A program made the translations under genes and the position numbers. A stretch of 64,000 nucleotides of DNA, taken from NCBI GenBank assembly GCA_024654575.1, contig JANLHG010000020.1, positions 55,991 through 119,990 of the forward strand, in the 5' to 3' direction. Below are positions 3,138 to 38,313 of the stretch, piece by piece. Below the pieces are notes generated by a model. The model searched no databases. It saw nothing but the letters and a program-made list of their open reading frames with translations, and was not told the origin of the DNA. How positions within the stretch are numbered: the stretch's first letter is position 1; each line of letters begins with the position of its first letter. This DNA is from Patescibacteria group bacterium (GTDB taxonomy: Bacteria > Patescibacteriota > Minisyncoccia > Phycocordibacterales > PALSA-1337).

Positions 3138-3235
3138 AATGTTAATAATTTAATAATAATTTTTATACGAGAGAATAACTCATATTTTGAAGTGTTGCAT
3201 CGACCTAACTTCTCAATAAAATAGTTTGGTTCGGC

Positions 3236-3365
3236 ACTGAGTATATTTAGTGAGAGGGGTACGGGGGGCGGTTTGACTGGTGCCATACTAGGTACGGCAT
3301 GATGTAGGGTAAAGATTCCTTCCGTACCCGCGAGGTTTGTTGTAGAAAGGGGTGGTTTGGTTTTA
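3236..3365. ncRNA. GC-rich intergenic island, candidate structured RNA (unclassified)
   Basis: GGTACGG / CCGTACC complementary segments and G-runs in an otherwise AT-rich intergenic region; no ORF. Confidence 0.2.
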
Positions 3366-3519
3366 TTTCTGTTTTAAAAGTGAGGGACCAAAAAAAATTC
3401 CGCAAAAAATTACAGAAAATGGGATTGTAGTTTTTAATAATGAGATGTATTATTAAAGAGTTAGTAAAATTGAATATAGTAATCTAAATCAGTGAGTAAT
3501 CGCTGACATGATGAAAAGT

Positions 3520-3587
3520 CCAGACACGGGTAGAAAACCTATCATATTAGGATCGCCGTGTCTGGCCGTACCAGAGAAATTTGGTAC
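3520..3587 (+). promoter_or_regulatory. Two adjacent perfect hairpins (CCAGACACGG-N26-CCGTGTCTGG; GTACCA-N8-TGGTAC) in the leader of the 3642.. gene
   Basis: 10-bp and 6-bp perfect inverted repeats read directly from sequence. Confidence 0.35.
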
Positions 3588-3641
3588 TGGAGAACCGAAA
3601 GGAACTCGCTTAATGTGGTAGGTTTTTTGCGTGTAGAAATT

Positions 3642-3899
3642 ATGAATAATCTATTAGAACAAATTTCTAAAAAACTAGATATCAAACCAAATCAGAATCT
3701 TATTGGTTTGACTATAGGATTAATTACCGTAGGTGTAGCGGAATTCTTTTCTCTCAGATATCTATTTGTATTCGGATCAATAACTACAATTATATTTTTA
3801 CTATCCGTAGAGTCCACCACACGCTCTTATACAAAAAATTATTGTTTAAATAAAATGATTGAAATTTCAGATAAGAAAAAAGTTAATAACATACTATAA
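3642..3899 (+). CDS. small membrane protein (start trimmed to MNNLLEQ...)
   Basis: hydrophobic TM segments; ORF-track start 3558 overlaps hairpin so internal Met preferred. Confidence 0.35.
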   Translation: MNNLLEQISKKLDIKPNQNLIGLTIGLITVGVAEFFSLRYLFVFGSITTIIFLLSVESTTRSYTKNYCLNKMIEISDKKKVNNIL

Positions 3900-3904
3900 T
3901 TATA

Positions 3905-4570
3905 ATGAAAGAAAAAGAAACTATATTAATGCAAGATCAAATTTTATCTAAAAATTGTAATGCCCTTTTGGAGTGGAGAAAACAATTTTCTAGAAAAGAG
4001 TATCCTCAACATGTGGTTAGAAAGATGTTCTATGATTTTTATACCGATCAAGAGCTCTGGCCATTTATTGTAGATATTTTTAATGATATGAGTGACGTTA
4101 GAACTCTTCTAAACTTACGAATATGTGAACATATTGAATACATTGATGAAGTAAACTTCTTATTTGAAGCAAGAAAGAAGTTAAAAACGGAAAAAATTCT
4201 ACCAAGATTAGATGCTTTGTTAAATGAAAATATTCCAGTTGTAAATAATATACGTTTTTCAGATTATTCTCAGATGATAGAAAATGCAATAAATGGTAAT
4301 GATTCTGATCTTGAAAAAATAGAGTATCATTTCATGTTCTATAAGATGACATCAGATCTTATTTCCTTTTGGGCCGCCGCTGGGATTTATGGAAAGAAAT
4401 GGGATGATGCAATGTTTTTTGTTACAGGAATGTTGGTGGGAGGAAAAATTGAAACTTTTGAGGATGTTTTTATGAAGTTTAGTAAGATTTCAGGTCTATA
4501 TCTTGCTGGGATTAATACTACTACTGGCAAAAATTTTGGGAAATATAAGCCTCTCCCTCCTTTTAAATAA
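3905..4570 (+). CDS. hypothetical protein
   Basis: ORF 221 aa. Confidence 0.4.
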   Translation: MKEKETILMQDQILSKNCNALLEWRKQFSRKEYPQHVVRKMFYDFYTDQELWPFIVDIFNDMSDVRTLLNLRICEHIEYIDEVNFLFEARKKLKTEKILPRLDALLNENIPVVNNIRFSDYSQMIENAINGNDSDLEKIEYHFMFYKMTSDLISFWAAAGIYGKKWDDAMFFVTGMLVGGKIETFEDVFMKFSKISGLYLAGINTTTGKNFGKYKPLPPFK

Positions 4571-4578
4571 TATAAAAT

Positions 4579-5157
4579 ATGGAAGATTCTATAAATTCAT
4601 TTCTTGGTAGTCACAGATTACTAGTTATATTAGTGGGAGGATTTATTATTATAGGACCTTTTGTAATTCCGTCTATAAAAGATTATTTTTCTTCAGATAG
4701 TAAGTTAAGACGTAAAAAAAGTCGAGAAAAAAGAAACTACGAACTAAAACAACAAATACAGGAGAAACTAATGCTTACTAAAGAAACTGAAAACAGAAGA
4801 AAAATAGAGCGACAAAAGATACAAGAACAAAGACAAAGAATAAAGGATGGGGAACACCAAAAATACCTTGATCTGAGAAAGCAAATCGAGAAAATGCCGA
4901 TTTATCAGAGATGGAAACAAGAAATAATGAACAAGTGTGGAAGCAAGTGTCAGATGTGTGGATCTAGTAATAATCTACAAGTTCATCACCTTGATTCGTT
5001 CTATTCAATCATAAAGCAGTATAATATTACCTCAATAGAAAAAGCTTTTGAATGTAAACAACTGTGGAATGTCGATAATGGAGAAATCCTTTGTAAAAAC
5101 TGTCACGATAAAATGGAAAGTTCAATTAATAGGCAGACTTTAATGTATAATACGTAA
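4579..5157 (+). CDS. membrane-anchored HNH endonuclease domain protein
   Basis: N-terminal TM helix, Lys/Arg/Glu-rich coiled-coil region, C-terminal CQMCGSSNNLQVHHLDSF...NGEILCKNCHDK (C-x2-C...HH...N...C-x2-C-H HNH signature). Confidence 0.6.
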   Translation: MEDSINSFLGSHRLLVILVGGFIIIGPFVIPSIKDYFSSDSKLRRKKSREKRNYELKQQIQEKLMLTKETENRRKIERQKIQEQRQRIKDGEHQKYLDLRKQIEKMPIYQRWKQEIMNKCGSKCQMCGSSNNLQVHHLDSFYSIIKQYNITSIEKAFECKQLWNVDNGEILCKNCHDKMESSINRQTLMYNT

Positions 5158-5159
5158 GC

Positions 5160-6077
5160 ATGAAAACTCTATACAAAAAAATAAATCAGCTTTGGTTGCG
5201 GTGTCGAAAGTGGAGCGAGATTAGTATAATCGGTGATTTTGTTATTAACACAGGAAGGATTGTTTTCATCATTACTATTTTCTTCTCAATCTTTTATATC
5301 ATTACTGTGATAGAGATATATAATGAAAATAAATTTCCTCAACTATCCCCCTCGAATAATTCTAAATCTACTACAGACAATAACTGCTCTGTTGCTGGTA
5401 TCAATTTACATGGGACGATAGTCACATATATTCCAGTATATAGTGATAATGATTCTTCATATGACGATATGATTGCAAGCGAAAGAGTTATCTGGGCCAT
5501 TAGACAGGCAAACAATGATTCAAAGATAAAAGCGCTTGTAGTTGAGGTAGATTCTATCGGAGGATATCCTGTAGCAGGTGAAGAAGTAGCTAATGCTATA
5601 AAAGATAGTAAAAAACCAGTTGTAGGATTTATAAGAGAAACAGGAGCTTCAGCTGCTTATTGGGCTATCAGTAGTGCTGACAAAATATTCGCTTCAGCAA
5701 ATTCTGATGTGGGGAGTATAGGAGTCACTCGTTCCTATTTAAGTAATGCTGAGAAAAATATTAAAGACGGCTATGTGTATGAAGATTTGAGTGTGGGTAA
5801 ATATAAGGACTCTGGAAACCCAGACAAAGTGCTAACAAACGAAGAAAGGGCTTTGTTTTTGAGAGATTCAAATATCATATATGAGAATTTTATTAAAGCT
5901 GTGTCACAAAATCGTAAAATTCCAATAGAAAAGGTAAGAAAGTTCGCTGACGGTTCAACTTTTTTAGGTGAAAAAGCAAAATCACTTGGACTGATAGATG
6001 AGATTGGTGGAATAAATGAAGTTGAAAAATACCTTGAGGAAATAACGGGAGAGAAACCAGAGATTTGTTGGCAATAA
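5160..6077 (+). CDS. sppA: S49 family peptidase (signal peptide peptidase SppA-like; same family as phage prohead proteases)
   Basis: N-terminal TM, then VVEVDSIGGYPVAGEEVANAI...GASAAYWAIS...GSIGV motifs typical of SppA/ClpP-fold serine peptidases. Confidence 0.7.
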   Translation: MKTLYKKINQLWLRCRKWSEISIIGDFVINTGRIVFIITIFFSIFYIITVIEIYNENKFPQLSPSNNSKSTTDNNCSVAGINLHGTIVTYIPVYSDNDSSYDDMIASERVIWAIRQANNDSKIKALVVEVDSIGGYPVAGEEVANAIKDSKKPVVGFIRETGASAAYWAISSADKIFASANSDVGSIGVTRSYLSNAEKNIKDGYVYEDLSVGKYKDSGNPDKVLTNEERALFLRDSNIIYENFIKAVSQNRKIPIEKVRKFADGSTFLGEKAKSLGLIDEIGGINEVEKYLEEITGEKPEICWQ

Positions 6078-6101
6078 AAAGGACGATGATATTATAGTGA
6101 A

Positions 6102-6671
6102 ATGACAACATCACTTATAGAGAACTCTTTTGCTATAACTACTCATTTATTAAAAAAAGATCTCAAAAAAGCACGACAAAAAACGCCTATAAATGGATAT
6201 TTGAATATATTCCATAATAATAAGCCATCTATAGCGGACTATTTAATAGAATATGACGGCGAAAATACATATCTTGTGATTAATTTTGCCGAAAAGTCAC
6301 AGAAAATCCTATTATCAGAACACCAATTAACTTTCGGAACACGAACATATCTAAATTGCGCTTGCGGACATAGGACCAATTCTCTTTATTTGAATAAAGG
6401 AATTTTTGCTTGTAAAAAATGCCATAATTTACACTATCAATCTACATCAATAAACCGTAATACCTTGCATGGTAAATTTCTTTACCAACAGAATCAGATA
6501 TTGAAAATAATAAATATGAGAGAAAGTATGAATCGTATTTTCTATAAATCCCGCTACAGTAAGCCATTTGTGCGCTGGCTAGATCTATGTGGAAAAGCAG
6601 GACTGATTAAGGAGGTAGAAGATGCGCAAGCACTTATTACGGCTATAAATAACTATCGACAGCAAGTTTAG
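6102..6671 (+). CDS. hypothetical protein with Cys/His cluster (CACGH...CKKCH)
   Basis: ORF 189 aa, putative zinc-binding motif. Confidence 0.35.
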   Translation: MTTSLIENSFAITTHLLKKDLKKARQKTPINGYLNIFHNNKPSIADYLIEYDGENTYLVINFAEKSQKILLSEHQLTFGTRTYLNCACGHRTNSLYLNKGIFACKKCHNLHYQSTSINRNTLHGKFLYQQNQILKIINMRESMNRIFYKSRYSKPFVRWLDLCGKAGLIKEVEDAQALITAINNYRQQV

Positions 6672-6949
6672 ATAAATTCAATAGTTTTTTGATATATAAA
6701 AAGTGGGAATGCCGATATTTCGGTAAATATGGCTGTATCAAGCCGTGTTTTTGATTTTTATAATTGGTTGACAATTCTAAAAAGTACTATGGTACACTTA
6801 AATTAATTATGAATATAAATTATTTAGGTATGAATTTTTGTTTCTTTACAATTCAAATTCCAAAATATGGAATAAAGGGTAACCATATTAAACATCCCTT
6901 TTAAATGGTGAGGATAATGTCCAGTAATAATTGCCTGGCTTTGAAACAC

Positions 6950-7210
6950 CGAAGAAATGCCGTGATTACGAATAGATTGTTGGGCCAAGAATCCTGACAT
7001 GCTATGGTATCGCATTTGGATCGTCCATTGTTGTGAAAGCTGGGAGAACAGCGAGCTTCACGGATATTGCCCAAGCTACCCAGCCGTTTGAACAGTGTGT
7101 GATCTAAATGAGGAGTTAGTTGGCTAAAGTGCCCGTTGCTTTCACACGGGATTTGTAGTGGGTTGTCTAAAAGTTTCGTCCACCTTAAATGGTGCCTTCA
7201 TTTTTAAGAT
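6950..7210. ncRNA. GC-enriched non-coding segment, candidate structured RNA (unclassified)
   Basis: 850-bp gap without credible ORF; local GC rise; hairpins CCGTGA...TCACGG and CCCGT-N9-ACGGG. Confidence 0.2.
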
Positions 7211-7526
7211 TTTGACTACAGCTAGGGAAGAATTAATGATGCACAACTGAACTGAAAGGAATTTGATATATAAAGACGATTGCTACTTGAAAAAACAGAA
7301 ACAAAGAAGAAATTGGACGAAAAGATTTAGCTAAACGCCCAATTTTATAGCACATATACACTTATATGCTTATTTGTTTCTAGTTTTACATCCCAAGCAA
7401 GACAACCACTTCAGCTTTTTTCTAGGGAAGGGGTAATCCGTCCTGCCTAAATAGTGCTGTATAGAAACTTCAATAAACCTATATGTAAATTAGAAGCAAA
7501 TTATTAATTAAGCTAACTTTACTCAA

Positions 7527-7778
7527 ATGACAATAAAAAACGCAAGAATGAATGTAGGTGTCAGGCAAAAACTGGCATCCTTACCTCGTACTCGATGTGC
7601 TAAATGTAATAGTGTTAAATCTTACACGAACCCTATGGCTAAATGCTGGGAATGTAAGAAAAAGTTTTGTTTTGACGATATTCGAAGCGGACAATTCAAA
7701 CAAGGTATGAAGCGTATAGACCAGTTAAGAAGAATTTGTGATGAGTGCAAAGAGAAATATGGATATGATGGGATATAA
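7527..7778 (+). CDS. small zinc-ribbon protein (three CxxC pairs)
   Basis: CAKCN...CWECKKKFC...CDEC. Confidence 0.4.
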   Translation: MTIKNARMNVGVRQKLASLPRTRCAKCNSVKSYTNPMAKCWECKKKFCFDDIRSGQFKQGMKRIDQLRRICDECKEKYGYDGI

Positions 7779-7790
7779 CTTTTGTAAAAT

Positions 7791-8264
7791 TCAATTTATC
7801 GTTGATGGTCGCAACTGCCAATCTTTATACAGATATCTTTTAAATGATCCTGGAAAATAAGGTTTCAACCATAAAATAGCTTGATTATCAGCATCTCTTT
7901 CCATCTTTGTATTAAGAACGCCATCTTCTGTATCTTCAATTCTTCTAAACCCATGTCTTTTATATACATGTGCAACTTCGTGGGCAATAGCAAACGCTAT
8001 CCTTTTTTCACTTTTGGACCAAAGTGAATTAGATAATATAATTAATCCCCGCTTACCTTTAAGACGAAAATCATTTCTTGCTATATACTCTCCCCTATCT
8101 TTCTTATCTAGAGATATAAAAACACATTTTTCAATCACAAAATCAACTATATTCTCTGGTAGATACGATAAAGCTTTTGCTAAAGGGTTTATATTTTCCT
8201 CAGAAATGAAATCCTTGAAATACACACAGTCCATTTCATTAGTAACTTCTCTTTGTGTATACAT
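7791..8264 (-). CDS. ImmA/IrrE-family-like zinc metallopeptidase
   Basis: AIAHEVAHVYKRH (HExxH) followed by ...ERDADNQA; size 157 aa. Confidence 0.5.
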   Translation of the reverse strand: MYTQREVTNEMDCVYFKDFISEENINPLAKALSYLPENIVDFVIEKCVFISLDKKDRGEYIARNDFRLKGKRGLIILSNSLWSKSEKRIAFAIAHEVAHVYKRHGFRRIEDTEDGVLNTKMERDADNQAILWLKPYFPGSFKRYLYKDWQLRPSTIN

Positions 8265-8271
8265 AAAAGTA

Positions 8272-8469
8272 TTATAGCGTATTTAATTCATTTTTCTCTT
8301 TCATTAACCTAATCTCTCTTTTAAGTGCTATGCCTGTTAATTTGAGAAGTTTTACACCAATATCATTTATTGTCTTATCATCAAGTTTAGCTAAATATTC
8401 TTTTCCAAAATCTTTTCTCAATATTTCCTTTAATTTATTAAATGCTTTTGGGGATAGTTTAGTAGTCAT
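8272..8469 (-). CDS. hypothetical protein
   Basis: ORF 65 aa, overlaps next gene by 4 nt. Confidence 0.3.
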   Translation of the reverse strand: MTTKLSPKAFNKLKEILRKDFGKEYLAKLDDKTINDIGVKLLKLTGIALKREIRLMKEKNELNTL

Positions 8470-9320: not shown

Positions 9321-10160
9321 TTACTTCCTAACATTTTCATCAAGTGAATGTCCTTGATTATCTTTCCAAGTATCCCAGCCGTTACAAATACCACCAATAA
9401 TTACATTTCCAGCAGAACTAGGGCTGGTAAATATGTAATCCTTAGTAAAGATATAAGAATTTTCGTCGTGATCTTTGAGAATACCGTCTTCAATCAACCT
9501 GTTTTTTAGTTGTTTACTAGAATTTCTTAAAAAAGACGGCTGTTCTTTTTTTCGAGCAAGCGAATTTTTATAAACTATAAATTCTTCTGTAGGAAGTAAT
9601 GTCCCATGCCCATCTGCACCCTTCAAGGTTACATATTTCATAGAATACATAACGCCACCAATTTGTTTTTTCGAATCTTCAAATACTAGATAGCCAAACA
9701 ATCCAGCCACAAGCTTGATATGTTCGAAACATTGAAAGGCGACTATCTTCTGTGCTTCAGAAAGCCTATTTTCTCTTGGTATTGCAGTATTAGAAATATC
9801 ATATCGATCTGCCTTCTTGGCAGTATCCACAGAAATACTTTCAAGATACTTTATAAGGGCACTGTCCAAACTACCAACGAATATAAAGGCAACATTCCAC
9901 TCATCTTCTTCTCTGTCAGCATCATGCGATATTAGTCTCCCAATAACATTTTCTGATTGGCCAATATATACTGATGGTCGTTCCTTTCCTTCACCGAATA
10001 AAAAATATAATCCAGGTTGTCCTACTTCTTCTCTAGCACGAAGTTCCGCAAGTTTTCCTCTTGGGGCAATAAACACCTTTCCAGTTCTTCCTTCCATTTC
10101 AATTAGCCGAAGTCCCTTTGGGTTATCATTCAGTAGAATTGTTGTTATTACTTGTGCCAT
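9321..10160 (-). CDS. GIY-YIG nuclease family protein with C-terminal uncharacterised domain
   Basis: GLYFLFGEGKERPSVYIGQSENVIGRLISH matches GIY-x(9-11)-YIG plus conserved Arg. Confidence 0.6.
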   Translation of the reverse strand: MAQVITTILLNDNPKGLRLIEMEGRTGKVFIAPRGKLAELRAREEVGQPGLYFLFGEGKERPSVYIGQSENVIGRLISHDADREEDEWNVAFIFVGSLDSALIKYLESISVDTAKKADRYDISNTAIPRENRLSEAQKIVAFQCFEHIKLVAGLFGYLVFEDSKKQIGGVMYSMKYVTLKGADGHGTLLPTEEFIVYKNSLARKKEQPSFLRNSSKQLKNRLIEDGILKDHDENSYIFTKDYIFTSPSSAGNVIIGGICNGWDTWKDNQGHSLDENVRK

Positions 10161-11048: not shown

Positions 11049-11981
11049 TTATGAAGGCTTTTTTTCTGATGTATCGATTTTCATATTCTCTATTTTCTCA
11101 GGACCAACATCTTGAATCTTTGCTTCCTCCTTTTTGGTTGGGAGAATCTTATCTATAATTTCAAATATCAATTCTGTAGGTACAACCCTTACTAATCCTG
11201 TTTGTTCAGTAAATACTATCCGTGGTTCTCCTGTCTGTTGGCTAATAGCAATATCAGAGTAGGTTTCTCCAGAACTAATAACTCCAATTAATCCTGCCGA
11301 AGAATTACTTTGAGTGCCTGTAATCGCCACTACCTCAGGCTTGTTGATAACAGGACCTCCACTATTTCCAGGATAAGCAGAGGCATCTATATAAAAGAAA
11401 CAATCTTCTAATACTTCTTCATCAACTCTAGCTATTATCCCTTGTCTCACAATTACGAAATTTCTTGTCTTGCCACTTATGCGCATCGGAAATCCAAGCA
11501 CAAACAATCCATCTCCAGTTGAAATATTTTCTATTGAGAAATCTTTAGCATAAAATATACTGTCCTCTCTAAAAAAGTAAAAATTTATTTTTGCATCATT
11601 AATTGCTACAGCATTAATAGGAAGAACAGCTAAATCAACTTTTTCACTCTCATGCATAAGCCAAAGAGGACTTTTGTCCTCTTTTAATAAAGGTACTTTA
11701 AAGTAATGACTTTTACTATCTAGGGTATTAAACCTAAAAAAGACTTCCTTTAATAGCTCTTTTGTTTTTGGATTTTGGAAAACATGTCTATTTGTTACAA
11801 CAAATAATTTAAAAAGGGGTTGTTTTTGATCATTTTCTCCCACTTTCTTACCAACTAAAAATCCTGTTGCAATTGAAATTTTACTTAATACTCCAGTAGT
11901 GTCTTTATTTTCTACCTCAATTGATACAACTGAATTTAAATATTGTGGTGGTATTAGAGACATAATTTCTATTCCTCCCAA
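11049..11981 (-). CDS. trypsin-like (S1 family) serine protease
   Basis: catalytic triad context TNRHV (His), DLAVL (Asp), GNSGGPV (Ser). Confidence 0.7.
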   Translation of the reverse strand: MGGIEIMSLIPPQYLNSVVSIEVENKDTTGVLSKISIATGFLVGKKVGENDQKQPLFKLFVVTNRHVFQNPKTKELLKEVFFRFNTLDSKSHYFKVPLLKEDKSPLWLMHESEKVDLAVLPINAVAINDAKINFYFFREDSIFYAKDFSIENISTGDGLFVLGFPMRISGKTRNFVIVRQGIIARVDEEVLEDCFFYIDASAYPGNSGGPVINKPEVVAITGTQSNSSAGLIGVISSGETYSDIAISQQTGEPRIVFTEQTGLVRVVPTELIFEIIDKILPTKKEEAKIQDVGPEKIENMKIDTSEKKPS

Positions 11982-14482
11982 AGTTTAGCTAGGGTGTCTT
12001 TAGTCTTTTGTTCATAAATCTCGATCAGTTTTTTATTACCTTCGACGAGAGTACGCTCCGATTCAATACGTTCCACGATTTGTTTTTGAATTCCGAGAGG
12101 TGGAAGAGGAATTTCAAAGCTAGAAACTTGGGCCAAAGATAAATTACTTTGAGCAACGCCCACTTTCAAACCAAGAATTTGGTTCTGAATCATATCTGAT
12201 CTTAAAACTTGTTCGAGGTATTTTGAATTTAGTTCTTTTTTTGGTGAAATTATTGCAAGTGCTTGGTTAGTATTGGCAGGTAATACAGAAGAATCTACCA
12301 AAGCAACTCGTCCAAGAGCGCCGGCGATTGAAAACAAGACATCATTTTCTTCCAACTGAGATCGTTTTAGAGATTCGTTACATTTCTGATTTATATGGGC
12401 AAATTTCTTCTTGATAAAATATCCATCATTATCAATTGATTCTATTTTAATAAAGTTAATTCCACTTTCTTGAAACTCAAATCCATTTGTGGTGGGAGTT
12501 GTCCCTTTTGTTACTCTGTTTGATACTTCTTCTAATTTCACCTTCTTCCACGAAGGATCAATTACTATGATTGGCTTCCAACTTGAAATGATTTGCTTAG
12601 CGCCGGCGATGATGTTTTGGTAGCCGTCTAGTTCAGCGACAATTTGCTGTTGGATTTCTAATGGCGGAATAGGAATTTTTTGATTTGCAATAGTTACATG
12701 CCCTAAATGCTTTTGAATCCCGCCCTTCATTTGCTGTTGTAATAAACCTTGGAATAAATCACTCTCCAGAATATTAAAGAGATATTTTTGATCCACCTTG
12801 TTTTTATCAAAAGAAATTCTAAATAAATTATTGCTTAATATCCCTGGAACAGCCATAAAAGCCCTGCCTGGTGTGCCGGTATTTGCCATAACAAGGTCTT
12901 CAACAGTGACTTCCTTGGTTGCATATATATCTTTAACATAAATTGATTTATCCTCGCCTTTAAAATCTTGTATATATAAATACCTTTTGTAACCACTTCT
13001 AAATTCATTTAACTGCTTTTCTTTAGGTATTTGTACACCCTGAGTAAATTCACAAACATCCCCCAACCTAACTATTGGCCATTTGGCATTGGTGTAATCT
13101 GTTGCTATGCGATAGCGATCTCCAGAAAGATTGTAGTCGCCAGATTCAGTAATCTTTTCTTTTTTCACTAACCAAGCAAAAAAACTACCGTCAGATATAA
13201 GTTGATTTTTTGTTCCCGTTTCAATAGCAATTTTCTGTGCTTTAAGAACATCAAGAGCTGCACCATCATCAGTTAAATCATTTATATGACTATCAGGAAG
13301 TGGTCGTCGACGAGCACCTAAATCAAAACCATCACTTTCAACTTTAATAAATAATATCTCATCTGTTTTCTTTGCTATCTCATTATCAAAAAATAGAATA
13401 CTGGTCTTTACTCCTGCATAAGGATTAAATACACCTTGTGGTAAAGAGACAACAGCATAGAGTCCATCTTCTACAAGATTCTTACGAAGTTGCTTATGTG
13501 CTGTACCGGACTGAAAAATAATACCTTCGGGAACAATAATACCTGCTCGGCCTTGAGGCCTTAGATGGTTCATTATGTAATCCACAAATAACACTTCGGA
13601 CCGGCTAGACTGAATACTAAACTTACTATGGGTGCTAACCCCGCCTTTTGGCGACATAAATGGGGGGTTGGCGAGAATTACAGAGAATTTGTCGCCCCAA
13701 CGTTCATCCATAGAGAGCGTGTCATATTGAAATATTTTTGGATTCTTGAATTGGTGTAGATACATATTGACTTGAGCTATACGGACCATTCCAGGGTCTA
13801 TGTCGTAGCCTTCAAAATTACCCATCAAGTTTTTACGCTGATCAGGGGTCAGAGGTTTTTCCTTTTTCTTTGGATCATTTTTACCGTCGTGTTGCTCGAG
13901 TATGTGTTTGTAGGCACTCACCAAGAATCCTCCAGTACCGCAGGCAGGGTCCAATACTTTGTCTTCCTGTGTCGGATCTACTACATCCACCATAAAATCA
14001 ATAATATGGCGTGGGGTGCGGAATTGTCCCGCATCGCCTTGAGATGACATGATAGAGAGCAGATATTCGTAGGCATTACCCAATTCTTCGGGGTGTGAAT
14101 AATCAAAGTAATTAATTTCCTTCAAAAATAAGCCTAGCACTTCAGGGCTTCGATACGGCAAAAATGCGGACTTAAAAATCTCACGAAAAAGTTGTGGAAG
14201 TTGTTTTGATTCAGAAAACTTTATAAGGGCTTCACTATAGATATTCATTCGCTCTTGATTGCCTATACGAGTATCAGCAAGACGAGTCCACGCATACTGC
14301 TCCAAGTCGCCTACAAAGAACGAGGGATCTCCACCCTGCTTAATCGCAGACTGGTCCATATCATCCATAAACTTGTAGATAAGAGCATTGGTGATCTGAT
14401 CTATTTGAGAAGTTGGATTTGGGACCACGCCGACAAGGACTTGGCGAGCGGCGTCTATATGTCTTTTTGTTTCGGTGTTCAT
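11969..14482 (-). CDS. hsdM/hsdS: Type I restriction-modification fused HsdM (N6-adenine MTase) - HsdS (specificity, two TRDs) polypeptide
   Basis: DPACGTGGFL (motif I), NPPF (motif IV); C-terminal half has two target-recognition domains with conserved spacers IPIPPLEIQQQIV and IPLPPLGIQKQIV; single 837-aa ORF. Confidence 0.85.
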   Translation of the reverse strand: MNTETKRHIDAARQVLVGVVPNPTSQIDQITNALIYKFMDDMDQSAIKQGGDPSFFVGDLEQYAWTRLADTRIGNQERMNIYSEALIKFSESKQLPQLFREIFKSAFLPYRSPEVLGLFLKEINYFDYSHPEELGNAYEYLLSIMSSQGDAGQFRTPRHIIDFMVDVVDPTQEDKVLDPACGTGGFLVSAYKHILEQHDGKNDPKKKEKPLTPDQRKNLMGNFEGYDIDPGMVRIAQVNMYLHQFKNPKIFQYDTLSMDERWGDKFSVILANPPFMSPKGGVSTHSKFSIQSSRSEVLFVDYIMNHLRPQGRAGIIVPEGIIFQSGTAHKQLRKNLVEDGLYAVVSLPQGVFNPYAGVKTSILFFDNEIAKKTDEILFIKVESDGFDLGARRRPLPDSHINDLTDDGAALDVLKAQKIAIETGTKNQLISDGSFFAWLVKKEKITESGDYNLSGDRYRIATDYTNAKWPIVRLGDVCEFTQGVQIPKEKQLNEFRSGYKRYLYIQDFKGEDKSIYVKDIYATKEVTVEDLVMANTGTPGRAFMAVPGILSNNLFRISFDKNKVDQKYLFNILESDLFQGLLQQQMKGGIQKHLGHVTIANQKIPIPPLEIQQQIVAELDGYQNIIAGAKQIISSWKPIIVIDPSWKKVKLEEVSNRVTKGTTPTTNGFEFQESGINFIKIESIDNDGYFIKKKFAHINQKCNESLKRSQLEENDVLFSIAGALGRVALVDSSVLPANTNQALAIISPKKELNSKYLEQVLRSDMIQNQILGLKVGVAQSNLSLAQVSSFEIPLPPLGIQKQIVERIESERTLVEGNKKLIEIYEQKTKDTLAKLWEE

Positions 14483-14486
14483 AGTT

Positions 14487-14936
14487 TTACATTATTCCTT
14501 TAAATTGTTCTTTTGTCTGTCCTATACTTTCACTGGCATTTTTCCCATCAGCCGAATATAATTCCTTCCAATCATATTCTCTAAAATTACTTTTCTTTTT
14601 CCACGATGAATATTCGTCATAAGAAATAGGGGGTTGTGGAGAATTACCATTTAGGCTAATCAGTGGAGTTTCTGGTTCAATCTTTTTAAGATACGCTACC
14701 GCATCTTCTCTTTTTGAAAAATGATTTATTGTAAAAAGAGGGTAACGATTACAATTCCTATATGTTGCAACGCACCATATAAAATCAGTTGGCGGTTGCT
14801 CATGATAGATCTTTGTCCAAACGGCTCCATCAGCGTTAGGTTCTATTTCAACTGTCCCTTTACACAAATACAAGACAAAAATTCTGTCATCAAAATAATT
14901 CTGTCCTTGAAATTCAATTGTGTTTAGGTGATTCAT
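14487..14936 (-). CDS. hypothetical protein inserted between hsdR and hsdMS
   Basis: ORF 149 aa, 2-4 nt spacing to neighbours. Confidence 0.4.
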   Translation of the reverse strand: MNHLNTIEFQGQNYFDDRIFVLYLCKGTVEIEPNADGAVWTKIYHEQPPTDFIWCVATYRNCNRYPLFTINHFSKREDAVAYLKKIEPETPLISLNGNSPQPPISYDEYSSWKKKSNFREYDWKELYSADGKNASESIGQTKEQFKGIM

Positions 14937-14939
14937 ATT

Positions 14940-17507
14940 TTAATTCATAAAAGTGTTAAGAGACACATAATCTTTTACATATGTAGGGACTGTAGTCTTG
15001 AAGCCATTGAGTCTCTGATATTCTTCGAAATCAAATGAGGCGCAAAAATTAAGCTGTGCTAATTGCTTAGTCTCAATAATCTCTCGAACTTGCGGATCTA
15101 CTATATATGCTTTGAAAAAGCTTTTAACTGGCGCATAGTGCTCTTGATCTACTGTATTTACTTCCGTGAATTTACTCCATTCTGATTCAAGTAACTCATC
15201 TTTGGATTCAAAATTACTTTTCTGTCCAAAAGCGACCTGTAGAAATTCACGAATAGTAATGCGACGATCAACATTAAAAGTTTTTCTAATTCCTTGTAGA
15301 TTAAGAAAGTGATTTGGTTTGTCGAAAATGTTGGTTTTAGTATAGTCTTCAGCTGCTGCTACGTCTCCATTATTCCAAAGGTTCTTTAACGTTTCGTTGG
15401 CAAGCACATCTTCTTCTACAGCACGCTTGAAGCCTTCGCGGTCAATACGCATACCTTCGGAGCCAATATGTTTTTCTGAAATTGTAGCAAGCTCATCCTG
15501 TGTAGCTAAATCTATTGGGCCTTTGAAAATATTAGTGCCATCTTCGTCAACGAATATATCTGAACCACCGGAATCTTTACCAGTTGTTGTATCAGTTTCT
15601 TTTATCTTCTTAATCTTCGGAAGTTTAATCTTTTCGTCATATTTAAATTCATTTTCAAAATATTCACAAGTAGCAAAAAAATCAAAGAATTTGAAATGTT
15701 CTTTATGTTTTGTGATAGTTTCTTTTGTTGCATAATCAATATATTCAAATTGATATTTTCTTGTGCCTCTTCCTTTAATTTGCACAAACTCCGCAGGGCT
15801 AAACACTGGACGCATCAGTGCTAAGTTTAAAATATCTTGACAGTCATAACCTGTAGTCATCATTCCAACAGTAACCGCTATGCGACTTTTACTAGAATCA
15901 TAACCCTCAGGACTTTTAACTTTGCCATTAAGCATATTATTAGAGAAGTTAATGGTCATTTGTTGAGCATTTTGGACCAAAGAAGTCACTTGCACGGCAA
16001 AATTTGATTCACTGTATTGTTCTGGCCATTTTTCAAAAGCCAGTTTGTTTAATATATTAGTTATTCTTGAAGCATGCTTTTGAGACACACAGAAAACAAT
16101 TGATTTTCCAAACAAGTCCAAATTATATTTTTTAGCAACAGGATCAAAGAGTCCGTTATCTATAAACGCTTTACACATTGCGATATTAGTTTCTTCGTTA
16201 AAGAATTTTCTTTCGTAATGACGTTCATTAAACACTTCGTTGATTGTCTCTCCTTGCTCTGTGGTGGAATGGACCGCATAACCATCTTCTGAGAGAAGTT
16301 CTGTGGTAATATCTGTGCGAGCGTCTACTACTATAGGATTTATAAGAAAACCATCTTTAACACCTGAAAGTAAATCATAGCTGAATGTTGGTTTACCTGA
16401 CTCGCATCCGAATGTCTTATATGTATCTAATAACTGTCTTCGTTCAAACTCTCTCTGTGTATCCGCACCTTCGCCATCAAATCCTTTGAGATAGTTTTTT
16501 GGCGTTGCGGTAAGTCCTAATTTATAGCCCACAAAGTATTCAAATACCGCACGACTGTTGCCACCAATGGACCTATGACTTTCATCACTGATAGTCAATT
16601 CAAAATCTGTAGGCGAAAATTCTTTTTTATACCTATCACCCGCAAGAAATGTCTGAATAGTAGAAACCACAATTTGAGCATTACGCCATGAATCACGGCT
16701 ATCTTTGTAGATAACACTAGTGTAATCCTTTCCTAAATATTGTTTGAAAGCTTTTTGTGCTTGTTCCTCAAGCTCTATGCGATCGACTAGAAATAGGATA
16801 CGACGAGCATTACCTGATTTAAGAAATAATTTTATGACTGCGGCAGAAATAAGCGTTTTACCAGTCCCAGTAGCCATTTCAAATAAGAATCTATTTTTAT
16901 TTTCAAATGCAGAAGATTGTAAACTTTTAATTGCCCCAACTTGATATGGACGCAATTGTTTAAGGTTATTATTATGTAGAAATTCTCGTTTCTTTGATTC
17001 GTCTTTAAAATCAGGATCATTAGCATAGCTAGGCATTTGCGATTCAATAATATAGTTTTCGTCTACTTTTGTACTAGCTAGTTCTGAAGGATTAGGAATA
17101 TATTTTTCATATTGTGTAATAGATTCTTGTGTTGGAAAACGGGAAATAGTATCAGGATTGCCATGTTTTGTATCCCATAAATAATGAATGTTGCCATTGG
17201 ATAATATAACGAATCGAGCATTTACAGTACGAGCATAATTTTTAGCTTGATCTTTAGCCGAAAGTGGATCGATCGATTCTTTCTTTGCCTCTACTACAAC
17301 AAGAGCCCTGCCGTCTTTATCTAAAAGAAGAAAATCAATAAATCCGTGCGTCTCTTGTTCAAAGTCGTCTCCAAGTTCTGAATACTTTACTCCTGGCTCA
17401 AGTTCAATATTAGCTTTTCCATTTTTATCATCTTCAAAACGCCATCCTGATTCTTCAAGCAGTTTGTTTATCTTAATACGAGCCGATGCTTCTTTTAATT
17501 TCATCAT
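14940..17507 (-). CDS. hsdR: Type I restriction enzyme R subunit (PD-(D/E)xK nuclease + SF2 helicase)
   Basis: N-terminal FIDFLLLD...VVVEAK nuclease motif; MATGTGKT Walker A; DESH; TATP. Confidence 0.85.
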   Translation of the reverse strand: MMKLKEASARIKINKLLEESGWRFEDDKNGKANIELEPGVKYSELGDDFEQETHGFIDFLLLDKDGRALVVVEAKKESIDPLSAKDQAKNYARTVNARFVILSNGNIHYLWDTKHGNPDTISRFPTQESITQYEKYIPNPSELASTKVDENYIIESQMPSYANDPDFKDESKKREFLHNNNLKQLRPYQVGAIKSLQSSAFENKNRFLFEMATGTGKTLISAAVIKLFLKSGNARRILFLVDRIELEEQAQKAFKQYLGKDYTSVIYKDSRDSWRNAQIVVSTIQTFLAGDRYKKEFSPTDFELTISDESHRSIGGNSRAVFEYFVGYKLGLTATPKNYLKGFDGEGADTQREFERRQLLDTYKTFGCESGKPTFSYDLLSGVKDGFLINPIVVDARTDITTELLSEDGYAVHSTTEQGETINEVFNERHYERKFFNEETNIAMCKAFIDNGLFDPVAKKYNLDLFGKSIVFCVSQKHASRITNILNKLAFEKWPEQYSESNFAVQVTSLVQNAQQMTINFSNNMLNGKVKSPEGYDSSKSRIAVTVGMMTTGYDCQDILNLALMRPVFSPAEFVQIKGRGTRKYQFEYIDYATKETITKHKEHFKFFDFFATCEYFENEFKYDEKIKLPKIKKIKETDTTTGKDSGGSDIFVDEDGTNIFKGPIDLATQDELATISEKHIGSEGMRIDREGFKRAVEEDVLANETLKNLWNNGDVAAAEDYTKTNIFDKPNHFLNLQGIRKTFNVDRRITIREFLQVAFGQKSNFESKDELLESEWSKFTEVNTVDQEHYAPVKSFFKAYIVDPQVREIIETKQLAQLNFCASFDFEEYQRLNGFKTTVPTYVKDYVSLNTFMN

Positions 17508-17873: not shown

Positions 17874-18222
17874 GTTGAGTACTGAAATATAATTTTATCT
17901 TTGTTTGTCTAATTTCTTCTCGTTAGTTACTGTAAATAATCGGTAATTAACGGGAGGGCGTTAGAAGGTAATACAGTCAATCCCTCAAATATACTGTAGT
18001 CAAGCATAGACTTAAAAAGCACTGCAAATGAAAACAAAATTTGCAAGATGTTTTCCACTTCCAGACGGCAACATGTGTTGCAAACATTGGAATGGAAACT
18101 ATATCGTCTTTCCCATGAAAGGAGATCATCGTTCAAGAAACGAAAAATCCCCCAATGAGGAGGACGATTCGGAAGAATAAACTACCAAATTTATTTTTCA
18201 ACCCACATTTCAAATTGAAGCG

Positions 18223-18476
18223 TGGGCAGAGGAAGTAATATAAAGCATGATTGGCTCTATAACTTAATGGATAAAGCAACAGATTAGTAATCTGTATCCA
18301 TCACAGGATGATTTATTCTTAAGTCATGATCTCGGTTCGAATCCGAGTAGAGCCGTTTTACTTCCTCTGTCCACTCTTCAAATTTTATAAAGAACGAAAA
18401 ATTACCCCATTTGGGGTGTGAACTAATCTTTTTATTAGAGTAGAATCATGTTTCATTTTTATCACCATATTAAATA
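18223..18476 (+). repeat. Repeated tRNA cassette copy 1: 16-bp inverted repeats (TGGGCAGAGGAAGTAA / TTACTTCCTCTGTCCA) flanking the tRNA-like gene plus ~100-bp conserved tail with CCCCATTTGGGG hairpin
   Basis: second copy at 38076-38313 with the same IRs and >90% identical tail but a different embedded tRNA-like sequence. Confidence 0.55.
18253..18355 (+). tRNA. atypical tRNA-like gene (103 nt): canonical acceptor, D arm (G18G19), anticodon arm (loop UUAGUAA) and T arm (GGTTCGAATCC), but a 35-nt insertion at the variable-arm position
   Basis: manual fold: GGCTCTA/TAGAGCC acceptor, ACAGA-TTAGTAA-TCTGT anticodon arm, CTCGG-TTCGAAT-CCGAG T arm; identity unresolved. Confidence 0.45.
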
Positions 18477-19354: not shown

Positions 19355-19769
19355 AAGTTGTGTAATTTTAAAAAAAGTATTACCGATAATTATTCCACAT
19401 TTTTGGTGTTTTTTCCACTTTATTTGCTATAATACTATTATGTTTATATTCCTTATTGGCTTATTTTGTTTTTTGTTGGTTATAGGATTTTTTGCGACAA
19501 GTGGAGAATCTTCATTATCTTTTGCTGTTATGGCTATGATTGCACTTGGGGCACTAGCTTTTGTGGGGTTTATTGGAATGATGGCTTATATGTTTGTTTC
19601 TCATTGACGATAAGTAAAAAATATATGGACCAAGAAATATATCGTTTAATGCAGGATCATGGTATTGATAAAGACATTGCGGAAAAAACGCAGGAGCTTA
19701 TTGATGATGGATTGAGTGAAGACGAGGCGGTTGAAATTGCAGAGGATATGTAGTTTGCTATAATACACA

Positions 19770-20030
19770 TTAAGAGCGGCGAGAGTTGGTATTTTCTAGC
19801 TTAGGCTAGGAACGGGGATCGTGAATTAAGTCCGTCATCCGCCTTTGTGCGGTGGATTTACTCGAAAGAGTAGAGGGTAGCGGTTAAAAGCGATAACTGG
19901 TTTACGGATGTACCAAGAGCCTCAATATGAGGAAGTGAACGCTAGGGACACGTGAGATAATGATTTCCTAGTAAGTAACTGGTTGCTCAAACAAAAAACT
20001 GTCATTTATTTGGCAGTTTTTTGTTTGCTA
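19770..20030 (+). ncRNA. candidate ~250-nt structured RNA with its own promoter and intrinsic terminator (unclassified)
   Basis: TTGCAG-16-TATAAT at 19733-19765; GC-rich body; terminator AAAAAACTG-loop-CAGTTTTTT at ~19989-20018; no ORF. Confidence 0.3.
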
Positions 20031-20102: not shown

Positions 20103-20516
20103 ATGACGAATACAAATAAGGATAATTGTTTTTACTCTGATAGTTTTAAAGATTATCGTGGAAAACCAATTAAATTATGTTGGTCGGAAGAACTATGGAT
20201 AACACATTTAAATAAACATCCTGAAATAATTGACCCACTTCATACATCTGAATTAATAAGTAAGACTGTTTTAGAACCAAGTCTTGTAATGACAGGATAT
20301 AGGCCAGGGAATGCAAAAGAAATGTTAGTATGTTATTATAAAGAGCATAAAAGAAGTGAAAGTGATGTATACTATAGTAAAGTTGTTATAGGGTGTAGTG
20401 GTCCCGATTTGTATGTAAAAACAGTTTTTATGGGATGGGCATTGTATATATATGTTGTTCAAGAGAAAAAATATAATTTTAAAGAATTATATAGAGATAA
20501 AAAAACATTCCTATGA
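20103..20516 (+). CDS. hypothetical protein
   Basis: ORF 137 aa; overlaps next ORF by 4 nt (ATGA). Confidence 0.4.
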   Translation: MTNTNKDNCFYSDSFKDYRGKPIKLCWSEELWITHLNKHPEIIDPLHTSELISKTVLEPSLVMTGYRPGNAKEMLVCYYKEHKRSESDVYYSKVVIGCSGPDLYVKTVFMGWALYIYVVQEKKYNFKELYRDKKTFL

Positions 20517-20911
20517 TAAATATTACTGACATTTTTAATATAGCAAAAAGAGATAAATGGGTAATGGAATATAATCCAGACCTAGATTCCTTGTATTGGT
20601 CAAAACCAAAGATTTCTCCTTCTACACAATTAAAAAAGTTTTTGCAGGATTTTTCGCTATACATTACTGAGCAGGGTTTGATTGAAGGCTTGTTTATTGA
20701 ATATGCTAAAGGTAATTTCATCTCTCACAATACGGAATATGCAGAATTAATTAATAAAATGGTGAAAGTTAATGATATATATGTTCTACCGCAGAATAAA
20801 GTTAAGGGTGTAGAGCCATTACTCAAAAGTATGGCAAATATGGTTGGTAATGAAACATTTGATGCAGTAAATAAAGGTTTGGACTTAGAGAAGTTTGTGA
20901 TGACTAGATAA
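20513..20911 (+). CDS. hypothetical protein
   Basis: ORF 132 aa. Confidence 0.4.
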   Translation: MINITDIFNIAKRDKWVMEYNPDLDSLYWSKPKISPSTQLKKFLQDFSLYITEQGLIEGLFIEYAKGNFISHNTEYAELINKMVKVNDIYVLPQNKVKGVEPLLKSMANMVGNETFDAVNKGLDLEKFVMTR

Positions 20912-20922: not shown

Positions 20923-20970
20923 TTCCTAAACACCCAACTCTCCCCTTTCTTAAATCCATAATCAACTCCC
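20923..20970. repeat. 48-bp perfect direct repeat, copy A (second copy 21845-21892)
   Basis: TTCCTAAACACCCAACTCTCCCCTTTCTTAAATCCATAATCAACTCCC identical at both sites. Confidence 0.85.
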
Positions 20971-20982
20971 TTTCAACTCAAT

Positions 20983-21336
20983 CTATTTTACTTTAACCCC
21001 AATCGCATAAATCCCAAACTTTTTGATTCGTCCTTCATAACCATTTAAGCTGTTATAACTTTTTATTCCTCCCTCTATATCAAGACCACTAGATAAAACA
21101 TTTTCTATACCTTCTGTTTCAAGCATTTTTCTAACATCTGGATATTTTCTTATCCTCAACACTTCGCAAGTGATTTGCTTCCCTGTAATATTATTTGTAA
21201 ATATCAAAACATCCCTAGAAACCATTTGATCGTATCTTTTATCACTTTCATCCTTTGGTGTACGCCCCTCAATTTTCTTAGTTCCGGCCTCTATAGCTTT
21301 GAATGGCCTATCATTTAAACTTAAGTTGTAATTCAT
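20983..21336 (-). CDS. ASCH/PUA-like domain protein (putative)
   Basis: 117 aa; N-terminal KAIEAGTKKIEGR pattern resembles ASCH family; weak. Confidence 0.35.
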   Translation of the reverse strand: MNYNLSLNDRPFKAIEAGTKKIEGRTPKDESDKRYDQMVSRDVLIFTNNITGKQITCEVLRIRKYPDVRKMLETEGIENVLSSGLDIEGGIKSYNSLNGYEGRIKKFGIYAIGVKVK

Positions 21337-21818
21337 GATTGAGATATTTTATTAAGTATGTATTTAGCTGTCTCTTCAGAAGTTTGTTTTTCATTATTAA
21401 TAATTTCTCCAAATGTTGGATTTGTTATTCCAATATTATAGTGGTGTTTTATTCTTTCTCTTTCCCAATCGTTCAATTTTCTATTTCCTCTATTAGTAAG
21501 TGCAACTTCTATTTTTGGTACTAAAGTAAAAAAGTAAATTTTAGTATCAAGTACTTTAAGATTTTCTAGCATAAATTCATAATTTTTTTGAGAGAGTGGA
21601 TATGGCACAATTACATTCAAACCTTTTCTTACAAAATTAGAAATAACTGAAACGGCATTTTCTAAGTTTAATGGCACAGCTTGATCAATTGGCATCCACT
21701 CAATCATTTCGTGAAATACATCAATTTCCAAAAGAGCAGTGTTTGGCATATTTTTAGCCAATATCTTGGCAACTGTACTTTTGCCTGCATTTATTGAACC
21801 ATTTAGAAAGATAATCAT
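21333..21818 (-). CDS. P-loop NTPase / small-molecule kinase-like (AAA_33 / CPT-like)
   Basis: Walker A GSINAGKST at N-terminus; 161 aa. Confidence 0.55.
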   Translation of the reverse strand: MIIFLNGSINAGKSTVAKILAKNMPNTALLEIDVFHEMIEWMPIDQAVPLNLENAVSVISNFVRKGLNVIVPYPLSQKNYEFMLENLKVLDTKIYFFTLVPKIEVALTNRGNRKLNDWERERIKHHYNIGITNPTFGEIINNEKQTSEETAKYILNKISQS

Positions 21819-21837
21819 AAATTATATTCTATCACTA

Positions 21838-22044
21838 TTATTTCTTCCTAAACACCCAACTCTCCCCTTTCTTAAATCCATAATCAACTCCCCTTTTATA
21901 TGGTGGCGGAAGCTGAATCGTAAATTCAAAAGGTACACACGGAATCGTTTTTAACCTAAAATTGTTGTCAAAAAAATGTTCGACAGTGTTCGTTTCGTGC
22001 CGATACTTAAACTCATAATAAAAAGATTCTAGCATACTTTTCAA
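21838..22044 (-). CDS. hypothetical protein whose last 16 codons are encoded by the direct repeat
   Basis: ORF 68 aa. Confidence 0.3.
   Translation of the reverse strand: MKSMLESFYYEFKYRHETNTVEHFFDNNFRLKTIPCVPFEFTIQLPPPYKRGVDYGFKKGESWVFRKK
21845..21892. repeat. 48-bp perfect direct repeat, copy B; lies inside the 3' end of ORF 21838..22044
   Basis: identical to 20923-20970. Confidence 0.85.
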
Positions 22045-38075: not shown

Positions 38076-38313
38076 TGGGCAGAGGAAGTAACACAAGTGA
38101 TTAGGATCTGTGATGAAATTGGTAGACATAATGATTTATCATATCATCGCCGTACAAGCATGCGAGTTCGAATCTCGCCAGATCCACAATTACTTCCTCT
38201 ATCCACTCTTCAAATTTTATAAAGAACGAAAAATTACACCATTTGGGGTGTGAACTAATCTTTTTATTAGAATAGAATCACGTTTCATTTTTATCACTAT
38301 TTTAAACAAACCG
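38076..38313 (+). repeat. Repeated tRNA cassette copy 2 (IRs at 38076-38091 and 38190-38205 plus conserved tail)
   Basis: see 18223-18476. Confidence 0.55.
38104..38186 (+). tRNA. tRNA-like gene (83 nt) with type II (Leu-like) architecture: 3-bp D stem, D-loop AAATTGGTAGA, 14-nt variable region; anticodon loop UUAUCAU
   Basis: GGATCTG/CAGATCC acceptor, ATGAT-TTATCAT-ATCAT anticodon arm, GCGAG-TTCGAAT-CTCGC T arm; anticodon identity ambiguous. Confidence 0.5.

Follow-up and report, generated by a model that had tools for sequence, protein, structure and literature searches.

A 48-bp direct repeat around a kinase–ASCH gene pair in a Patescibacteria genome, and the small coding module at whose 3' end it lies

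How two genes come to stand between identical 48 bp sequences, one of which is the coding end of a neighbouring open reading frame (ORF), is the question raised by a locus of a Patescibacteria group bacterium of the PALSA-1337 lineage (assembly GCA_024654575.1, contig JANLHG010000020.1). The whole stretch of DNA analysed, referred to here as the window, is the 64,000 nt between positions 55,991 and 119,990 of the forward strand of this contig. Within it, the two copies of the repeat enclose a P-loop kinase gene and an ASCH-domain gene, and one copy is part of the tiny frame ORF68. The explanation favoured, which is given about an even chance of being correct, is that the repeat is the footprint of a recent recombinational insertion of the kinase–ASCH operon at the 3' end of the ORF68-type module. 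The event itself is, on that reading, a fairly ordinary recombinational insertion scar, and it is the tiny ORF that is the most interesting part of the locus.

The repeat pair and the cassette between its copies

The copies of the repeat, A and B (Table 1), are identical over 48 bp and, as the original prediction had described, enclose exactly two minus-strand genes, those of the kinase and the ASCH protein, whose stop and start codons overlap in the sequence ATGA. The alignment of the copies grows to 51 nt with one mismatch, and on the ASCH-proximal side the similarity reaches about 55 nt, through some 6 nt more that hold one further mismatch and a 1-nt indel in a run of G; imperfect similarity of A to B persists to about position 20977. 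With 3 mismatches allowed, the 48-mer is present only twice in the window, and it is not present in any of 100 dinucleotide shuffles of the window. The microhomology GAGTTGA is found at both junctions, with AGTAAAAGGTATTATC flanking copy A on its downstream side and GAAATAATAGTGATAG standing between copy B and the kinase gene. Folded with its flanks, the 48-mer has a dG of 0 on both strands (z about +0.4), and no dyad symmetry is evident in it. Neither the repeat region nor a neighbouring structured element matches an Rfam family.

Copy B takes in codons 52–66 of ORF68, together with 1 nt of codon 51 and 2 nt of codon 67, and ends 4 nt short of the stop codon. It had been proposed to encode the last 16 codons of this frame, which is right for about 16 codons but not for the end of the frame, as the repeat does not reach the final Lys codon or the stop. 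Copy A lies 12 nt past the ASCH stop and 11 nt from the end of the convergent ORF132; it is non-coding, as there is an in-frame stop ahead of it and no start codon.

Table 1. Features of the locus and contexts of the kinase–ASCH pair (HMM, hidden Markov model)
Feature	Position or locus	Strand	Description
Repeat copy A	20923..20970	-	relic of the last ~17 module codons, non-coding; matches the module HMM at E 2.3e-6
Shared cassette	20975..21854 (880 bp)	-	91.4% identical to L001 2124-3003 and L002
ASCH-domain protein, 117 aa	20983..21336	-	PF04266, GKER octapeptide; closest solved relatives PH0355, PF0455
P-loop kinase, 161 aa	21333..21818	-	CPT-like (PF07931), Walker A GSINAGKST; BH3686- and nucleoside-kinase-like
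ORF68	21838..22044	-	member of the ~45-aa module family, stand-alone in the window
Repeat copy B	21845..21892	-	coding 3' end of ORF68, residues 52-66 GVDYGFKKGESWVFR; HMM positions 46-62 of the module
Kinase–ASCH context	window		after NMO-like gene
Kinase–ASCH context	L001		after retron-type reverse transcriptase
Kinase–ASCH context	L003		after EcoRI-type methylase region
Kinase–ASCH context	L031		after DnaK-DnaJ
Kinase–ASCH context	L038		inside NUDIX array
Kinase–ASCH context	L040-47		after two-component system
Kinase–ASCH context	L048		after GrpB

The closest relatives of the cassette are in two contigs from other samples, L001, which is from the Paceibacterota, and L002. The segment shared with them is made up of the module's last five or so codons and stop, an extended -10 box, the kinase and ASCH genes, and 8 nt of 3' flank. 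Directly upstream of 21855, in the module region, identity between the window and L001 drops to about 55%, and directly downstream of 20975 it is gone, the 3' flanks being unrelated. Both steps fall on the inner edges of the repeats. The collapse of identity at both repeat edges points to a mosaic locus and to recent exchange of the cassette, in keeping with the original view of the segment between the repeats as mobile. At four-fold degenerate sites the two genes differ between the window and L001 by 0.24 and 0.21, and since the non-coding copy A is identical to copy B at 48 of 48 positions, the duplication is much younger than the split of these two cassettes (neutral divergence about 0.22).

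In L001 and L002, an ORF68-like frame (46% identity over 41 aa, HMM E 7.8e-11) is directly ahead of the same cassette and runs into the same stop, promoter, and kinase junction as in the window. The L001 module is without a start codon and without 13 codons (RGVDYGFKKGESW), which are most of the repeated segment. The last five codons before the stop, LFGNK in L001 and VFRKK in the window, are contiguous with the high-identity cassette, which indicates that both cassettes descend from a unit that already abutted the end of a module. The tail that follows copy A, RKVKGII and a stop, resembles the native tail TNIK of the cassette-free contig L023 described below and not that of copy B, while the copy B tail RKK aligns with GNK of L001. 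There is thus weak evidence, in the short sequences of these tails, that the flank of copy A may be resident and that the copy B tail may have come with the cassette. The 39-nt deletion in the L001 module (window 21894-21856 against L001 ~2110-2124) has its left edge 2–3 nt from the left edge of copy B, either the same breakpoint used in two independent events or a coincidence.

The kinase–ASCH pair, at 70–91% aa identity, is present in at least seven unrelated neighbourhoods (Table 1). The extended -10 box of the window, TGATAGAAT, is 7 nt ahead of the kinase ATG, as a sequence motif only, and a TGnTAnAAT box is found 6–8 nt before the kinase ATG in four of the five contexts that were aligned. 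There is no other conservation in the flanks of these five contexts, nor are there terminal inverted repeats at the ends of the cassette. None of the approximately 45 window ORFs that were profiled is a transposase, integrase, or recombinase, and the earlier remark that a transposon would leave a target duplication far shorter than 48 bp stands. No phage, plasmid, or viral carrier was matched, either for the cassette or for the fused recombinase fragment described below. At L003, a second and unrelated locus, the same pair is enclosed by a duplicated CN-hydrolase gene end (3' end, 68 nt, 81% identical), of which the upstream duplicate is a relic interrupted by a stop in frame. The window is therefore not the only place where a duplicated gene end surrounds this cassette.

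The surroundings of the L001 cassette are defence-island-like, as it lies between the retron-type reverse transcriptase (983-1927; PADLOC RT_II-A, 2.8e-32) and a mad2-like methyltransferase–NYN fusion (3057-4406). The window also holds a type I restriction-modification system (11969-17507) and a DUF4357 protein (9321-10160).

The module family and its cassette-free members

An exhaustive HMMER search of 1.84 billion representatives identified 22 relatives of ORF68 at E ≤ 1e-3; a word-indexed homology search with ORF68 found nothing. The repetitive 529-aa protein P0252 among the 22 looks spurious, and nearly all of the module's relatives are tiny ORFs of 36–114 aa that have the module, of about 45 aa, near the C-terminus. 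The consensus of the module is ..RHG.NT.QH..K.IPFEF.IKLPPPLKRGVDYGFKKG.NW.F, and copy B is the most conserved C-terminal motif of ORF68, KRGVDYGFKKGESWVF, as well as the most conserved end of the family. There are four differences between the repeat in the window and that in L023, all of them synonymous third-position changes, which indicates that the module is under purifying selection as a peptide. ORF68 is a genuine conserved coding unit, copy A matches the module HMM, and the suggestion that copy A is a duplicated end of the neighbouring ORF holds. The treatment of ORF68 as an unrelated resident neighbour does not, the ORF68-like module being directly upstream of the cassette in L001 and L002 also. 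The duplicated "gene" is a module that travels with the cassette or attracts it.

The module family was previously undescribed and unannotated and, with its link to serine recombinase tails, is the novel lead of this analysis. In two proteins, P0257 (183 aa) and P0261 (135 aa), the module is in-frame after the C-terminal region of a large serine recombinase. Residues 11–124 of P0257 match positions 452–562 of the 651 in the phrog_95 "integrase" profile (E 3.4e-11), P0257 also matches the last residues of XisF (E 4.5e-4), and P0257 and P0261 are 44% identical across 131 aa, with both parts covered. The likeness to the large serine recombinases, the phrog_95 integrases and XisF, is in the coiled-coil and zinc-ribbon C-terminal region, which the upstream parts of the two proteins match and to which the module is a C-terminal extension. 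It differs from them in the window and in four other loci, where the module is alone, without the body of a recombinase. Indeed, no full-length recombinase with an ORF68-type tail was found among the 1.84 billion representatives.

The stand-alone modules are 80 nt or less from an unrelated upstream gene, which is NMO-like or encodes an enolase, a permease, or a reverse transcriptase. They share an approximate starting point but not a start codon (TTG, TTG, GTG, and none), and the DNA after them is variable in all five contexts. No recombinase was found downstream of the stand-alone module in L039 or L023. L039 is an IMG/VR GVMAG contig on which the module is accompanied by bacterial-type cargo, an alpha/beta-hydrolase and an AbiE-like pair (601-765 and 3693-8393); the remainder of the contig resembles giant-virus genes, and it is either a chimeric bin or a virus carrying module DNA.

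Modules without the cassette were identified in a metagenome scan with a wobble-relaxed form of the repeat. The two contigs so found, L023 and L024, which come from a single metagenome, each have a module with a single copy of the motif and no kinase–ASCH cassette. The order in L023 is enolase, module, about 430 nt, and then a homologue of the structured element of the window (85.6% identical to window 19781-19919), with a homologue (74%) of the small window ORF 19646-19753 later on. The recurrence of the structured element and the small ORF indicates that L023 is syntenic with the minus strand of the window and represents the unoccupied, single-copy state. The search for an empty site that the original prediction had called for was thus answered in part, by these distant, cassette-free, single-copy relatives, and not by a near-identical empty site or a circular form. 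When the NMO-like gene was used to look for the empty site, its GTDB relatives were at most 64% identical and the best metagenomic one 76%, and none was syntenic downstream. An exact-sequence look-up of the ASCH and NMO-like proteins of the window returned no record.

Between themselves, L023 and L024 are 91% identical across the module end and approximately 90 nt beyond it, where a 2-kb indel begins. The 2-kb segment (L023 6732-8756 against L024 130-143) holds the candidate non-coding RNA (ncRNA) described below, ORFs of 101 and 184 aa, a tRNA, and the small ORF. The next gene common to the two, which is SppA-like, is only 68% identical, the module end being far better conserved.

Origin of the repeat

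In the explanation favoured here, a compact, self-promoted kinase–ASCH operon of approximately 0.9 kb that is horizontally exchanged would have been inserted where a resident ORF68-type module has its 3' end. The incoming DNA would have brought its own module 3' end, as the L001 cassette still does in part, and recombination inside the shared segment of about 50 bp would have set the cassette directly behind the module. The most likely route would be a single Campbell-type (ends-in) crossover of a circularised fragment, with a one-sided homology-anchored or template-switch event as the alternative. A single crossover of a circle would give the order repeat–insert–repeat, and the junction of the circle would explain the imperfect ASCH-proximal nucleotides. 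The outcome would be copy B on an intact ORF with the cassette-borne tail RKK, and an orphan copy A that runs on into the original tail ..RKVKGII. There is no gene for a dedicated recombinase in the cassette, and recombination between the two perfect copies could just as well remove it. We infer this order of events, the circular intermediate, the biochemical roles discussed below, and the recent mobility of the cassette in this strain.

The locus resembles the products of Campbell-type integration and the genomic islets found at duplicated 3' gene ends, such as the attachment (att) sites of tRNA and tmRNA genes or of other gene 3' ends, in having direct repeats of which one completes the target gene and the other is an orphan relic, and in that such repeats are able to mediate precise loss of the insert. 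It differs from these islets in that there is no integrase inside or beside the insert, only the kinase and ASCH genes being between the repeats. The insert is also just 0.9 kb or so, with two metabolic-type genes and a promoter of its own, and what it targets is not a tRNA or housekeeping gene but a very small ORF without annotation. With homology-facilitated illegitimate recombination and template switching it shares a one-sided short homology (the module 3' end), the GAGTTGA junction, foreign DNA beside the anchor, and an imperfect edge, but these processes classically give deletions or replacements and not a clean flanking duplication of 48 bp.

Several observations weigh against a recent insertion by this route. 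The cassette-free relatives are distant, the SppA of L023 having about 48% aa identity, and neither a near-identical strain with an empty site nor a circular junction was found in the collections searched. In L001 and L002 the module and cassette are adjacent without a downstream relic, so that the two may have been adjacent for long and the duplication may have happened independently afterwards. Five other contexts of the kinase–ASCH pair are without flanking repeats. The route further assumes a circular intermediate with the 48 bp on it, and so short a length is close to the minimum at which RecA-mediated recombination is efficient. The search for a recombinase covered about 45 profiled ORFs within 64 kb of the genome.

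Should the adjacency be old, the module, kinase, and ASCH genes would be long-time neighbours, and some 50 nt of the module end would later have been copied into the spacer between ASCH and ORF132, by microhomology-mediated template switching or by templated break repair using the GAGTTGA that is present at both junctions. Such a local duplication is fairly unlikely. The module–cassette junction is common to L001 and L002 and hence older than the very young, 100% identical duplication, there is no relic in L001, and the ASCH-proximal junction has both the microhomology and an imperfect, indel-bearing edge. However, it leaves unexplained the sharp drop in identity upstream of 21855, unless the L001 module evolves fast or is decaying, and decay is plausible in view of the missing start codon and 13 codons. 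Neither the likeness of the relic's downstream tail to the native tail of L023 nor the analogous 68-nt bracket in L003 is accounted for by it.

A little less probable again is a site-specific origin, in which the module would stem from a large-serine-recombinase element, as its detached tail or its attachment region, and the 48-bp motif, or the boundaries of the module, would be the recombinase site. The direct copies would then be both product and substrate of cassette capture and excision by a recombinase acting in trans, on an integron-like platform of the serine recombinase type. The in-frame fusion of the module to a large-serine-recombinase C-terminal region, seen in two proteins only 44% identical, is consistent with this, as are the common 5' boundary of the stand-alone modules close to unrelated upstream core genes, their lack of conserved start codons despite purifying selection on the peptide, and the variable DNA after the module in five of five contexts, with the 2-kb indel of L023 and L024 some 90 nt past it. 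The repeat, furthermore, is exactly the most conserved segment of the module. This conservation is, however, accounted for by protein coding, the changes seen being synonymous. No recombinase gene was found when ORFs of the window were profiled, nor in the DNA that follows the module in L023 and L039; the 48-mer, being without dyad symmetry or structure, gives no support for a recombinase site, and the attL and attR of large serine recombinases are normally not identical across 48 bp. The adjacency of module and cassette is, besides, seen in two genomes only. Quite unlikely is the more specific proposal that the module is a portable "landing pad", a coding segment whose translation would depend on its attachment, as a detachable C-terminal tail, to a serine recombinase gene, and which would mark a junction for cassette exchange; kinase–ASCH would be one of many cargo units and the 48-bp duplicate a second excision site. 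Were this the case, it would be an integron analogue built on a serine recombinase.

It is very improbable that the arrangement is an artefact of assembly, through a loop in the de Bruijn graph or a collapsed mixture of strains in which a shared 48-bp k-mer path stitched the cassette in. The source contig is assembled from a metagenome, its flanking NMO-like protein is identical to P0121 of an NCBI "Patescibacteria group bacterium", and graph loops do yield a repeat–X–repeat topology. Against this, the left junction, from module end through promoter to kinase, is found independently in L001 and L002 from other samples, and a foreign molecule would itself need the 48-mer downstream of ASCH to rejoin the host contig. 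In addition, 48 bp is less than the final k of common assemblers, and the imperfect extension past 48 bp, with its mismatch and indel, speaks for two real loci.

That the repeat belongs to a known repeat-bearing system, namely an integron attC, a transposon target-site duplication, or a diversity-generating retroelement, is scarcely credible, although the unit is of cassette size, one repeat is at the 3' end of an ORF, and a reverse transcriptase is beside the module in L001. Like integron cassettes, the unit is compact and tightly bounded, occurs in many contexts, has a repeat at an ORF 3' end, and has variable cargo beside a conserved upstream platform, here the module. It differs from them in that there is no attC-like hairpin and no tyrosine integrase and the cassette is not promoterless, any link to a recombinase being circumstantial and to the serine, not the tyrosine, recombinases. 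An attC is rejected, the 48-mer being unfolded on both strands and without R''/L''-L'/R' organisation, with no IntI among the profiled ORFs of the window and a cassette that has its own promoter. A target duplication of an insertion sequence or transposon is rejected on length, 48 bp being far above 2–15 bp, and as there are no terminal inverted repeats and, among the profiled ORFs, no transposase. As for a diversity-generating retroelement, the copies are identical without A-to-N differences, the motif is among the most conserved columns and not hypervariable, and the reverse transcriptase of L001 is of the retron type, with none in the window.

The cassette proteins, the surrounding DNA, and significance

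The profile check proposed for the 117-aa protein indicates an ASCH and not an EVE domain. It scores 24.2 bits against PF04266, for which the cut-off is 21.2, with residues 5–115 on profile positions 1–100 of 103, and ASCH is the sole Pfam report at E ≤ 0.1, the EVE profile giving no match. Among solved structures in the PDB it matches 2z0t (PH0355) at 1.3e-12 and 1s04 at 2.5e-9, and it matches a PHROG "RNA-binding protein" family at 7e-11. The ASCH octapeptide G-x-K-x-x-[E/T]-x-R is intact (G18 T K20 K I E23 G R25). This "GKER" octapeptide is described in a 2026 preprint as carrying the catalytic Lys/Glu dyad of ASCH enzymes that deacetylate N4-acetylcytidine (ac4C) (10.64898/2026.02.27.708502), of which YqfB is the classical example (PMC6972931). 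The window protein, of a candidate phyla radiation (CPR) subfamily, shares with YqfB and with the GKER-type ASCH amidohydrolases TthASCH and EOLA1 the fold family and the intact G-x-K-x-x-E-x-R motif with its dyad, and differs from them in being translationally coupled to a CPT-like kinase, a pairing that is not described in either of these papers. There are more than 200 homologues at 56–91% identity, and those with source names are from Patescibacteria (Paceibacterota, Gracilibacteria, Moranbacteria, and others). In other genomes the neighbours of the ASCH gene include NUDIX, HIT, HAD, Ham1, pyrophosphatase, acetyltransferase, and APH genes, and in one lineage it is translationally coupled to a YbaK-like gene, with a cytidine deaminase adjoining.

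The kinase scores 27 bits against PF07931 (cut-off 22), with only residues 1–105 aligned, on profile positions 2–120 of 172, and has weak matches to the Gar/GrdA family, BH3686, nicotinamide riboside kinase, and uridine kinase. A toxin–antitoxin or zeta-toxin identity was rejected, the match being at the level of the P-loop only (E 0.011). The PADLOC models gave no match to the ASCH protein and, to the kinase, only VakA (E 0.009) over the P-loop, so a defence-system role for the cassette has no PADLOC support. The original prediction had placed the pair among modules that sense modified nucleic acids, which is not upheld, given the absence of a PADLOC match, the arrays of NUDIX, HIT, HAD, Ham1, and deaminase genes in which related genes lie, and the CPT- and nucleoside-kinase-like character of the kinase. 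On the ASCH motif and the gene neighbourhoods, the most likely role of the cassette would be nucleoside or nucleotide salvage or house-cleaning, and not that of a defence sensor. The ASCH protein may be an ac4C-type deacylase and its partner a small-molecule or nucleoside kinase.

The structured element that the window (19775-20027, +) shares with L023 (7010-7245, -) is conserved and ORF-less, and is probably an unclassified ncRNA of the Paceibacterota. It has a promoter-like box, TTTGCTATAAT, at 19755-19765 and a terminator hairpin at 19988-20027, with a minimum free energy of -72.1 kcal/mol (z -3.5), and its core of about 145 nt is 85.6% identical to that of the distant relative, with four compensatory pairs between these two sequences only. 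There is no match in Rfam at E ≤ 1. Its 5' stem (GAGAGTTGGTATTTT, window 19770-19789, +) agrees with the core of the repeat (GAGAGTTGGGTGTTT) at 17 of 20 positions in inverted orientation, less so in L023, and this is probably chance. The corresponding peptide, "KSGESWYF", was considered as an inverted, partial third copy of the repeat and rejected, as it is not significant against the module HMM and is inside the conserved stem of the candidate ncRNA. Two orphan genes of 137 and 132 aa, which overlap by 4 nt, occupy 20103-20911 (+) between copy A and this element. Pfam, NCBIfam, PADLOC, and PHROGs gave no match to either, and the syntenic L023 lacks both; the two may represent another small cassette that was inserted here.

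A tRNA-like gene at 18253-18355 (+), missed by ARAGORN, scores 54.8 bits against the Rfam tRNA model. A 32-nt insertion separates its anticodon arm from its T arm, its anticodon loop is UUAGUAA, and a 27-nt inverted repeat (89% complementary; arms 18212-18238 and 18358-18384) brackets it almost exactly. At 38104-38187 (+), ARAGORN reports an 84-nt tRNA-Asp with anticodon ATC, of odd length and anticodon, that the Rfam tRNA model does not report at its gathering score. Unusual intron-containing tRNA-Asp and tRNA-Asn genes have been reported in Patescibacteria in a 2026 paper (PMC13011429). There is also a LOOT RNA (RF03000) at 3481-3607 (+), with 57.2 bits, above the gathering score.

Patescibacteria have tiny genomes, depend on salvage, and are unable to make nucleotides de novo. 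To our knowledge, little has been established about how they gain and lose accessory genes. This locus would be a base-pair-resolved case of a self-promoted, two-gene, salvage-type operon exchanged between lineages, with junctions placed within a few nucleotides, and the pairing of kinase and ASCH is a testable lead for the salvage of ac4C or of modified cytidine. It also brings to light a family of mini-ORFs, hitherto without annotation, that lie exactly where core genes give way to variable cargo and are tied to the tails of serine integrases. If the module is not a recombination platform, what is seen here is an ordinary recombination scar; if it is one, it would explain the shuffling of cassettes and would give a searchable marker for insertion hot spots.

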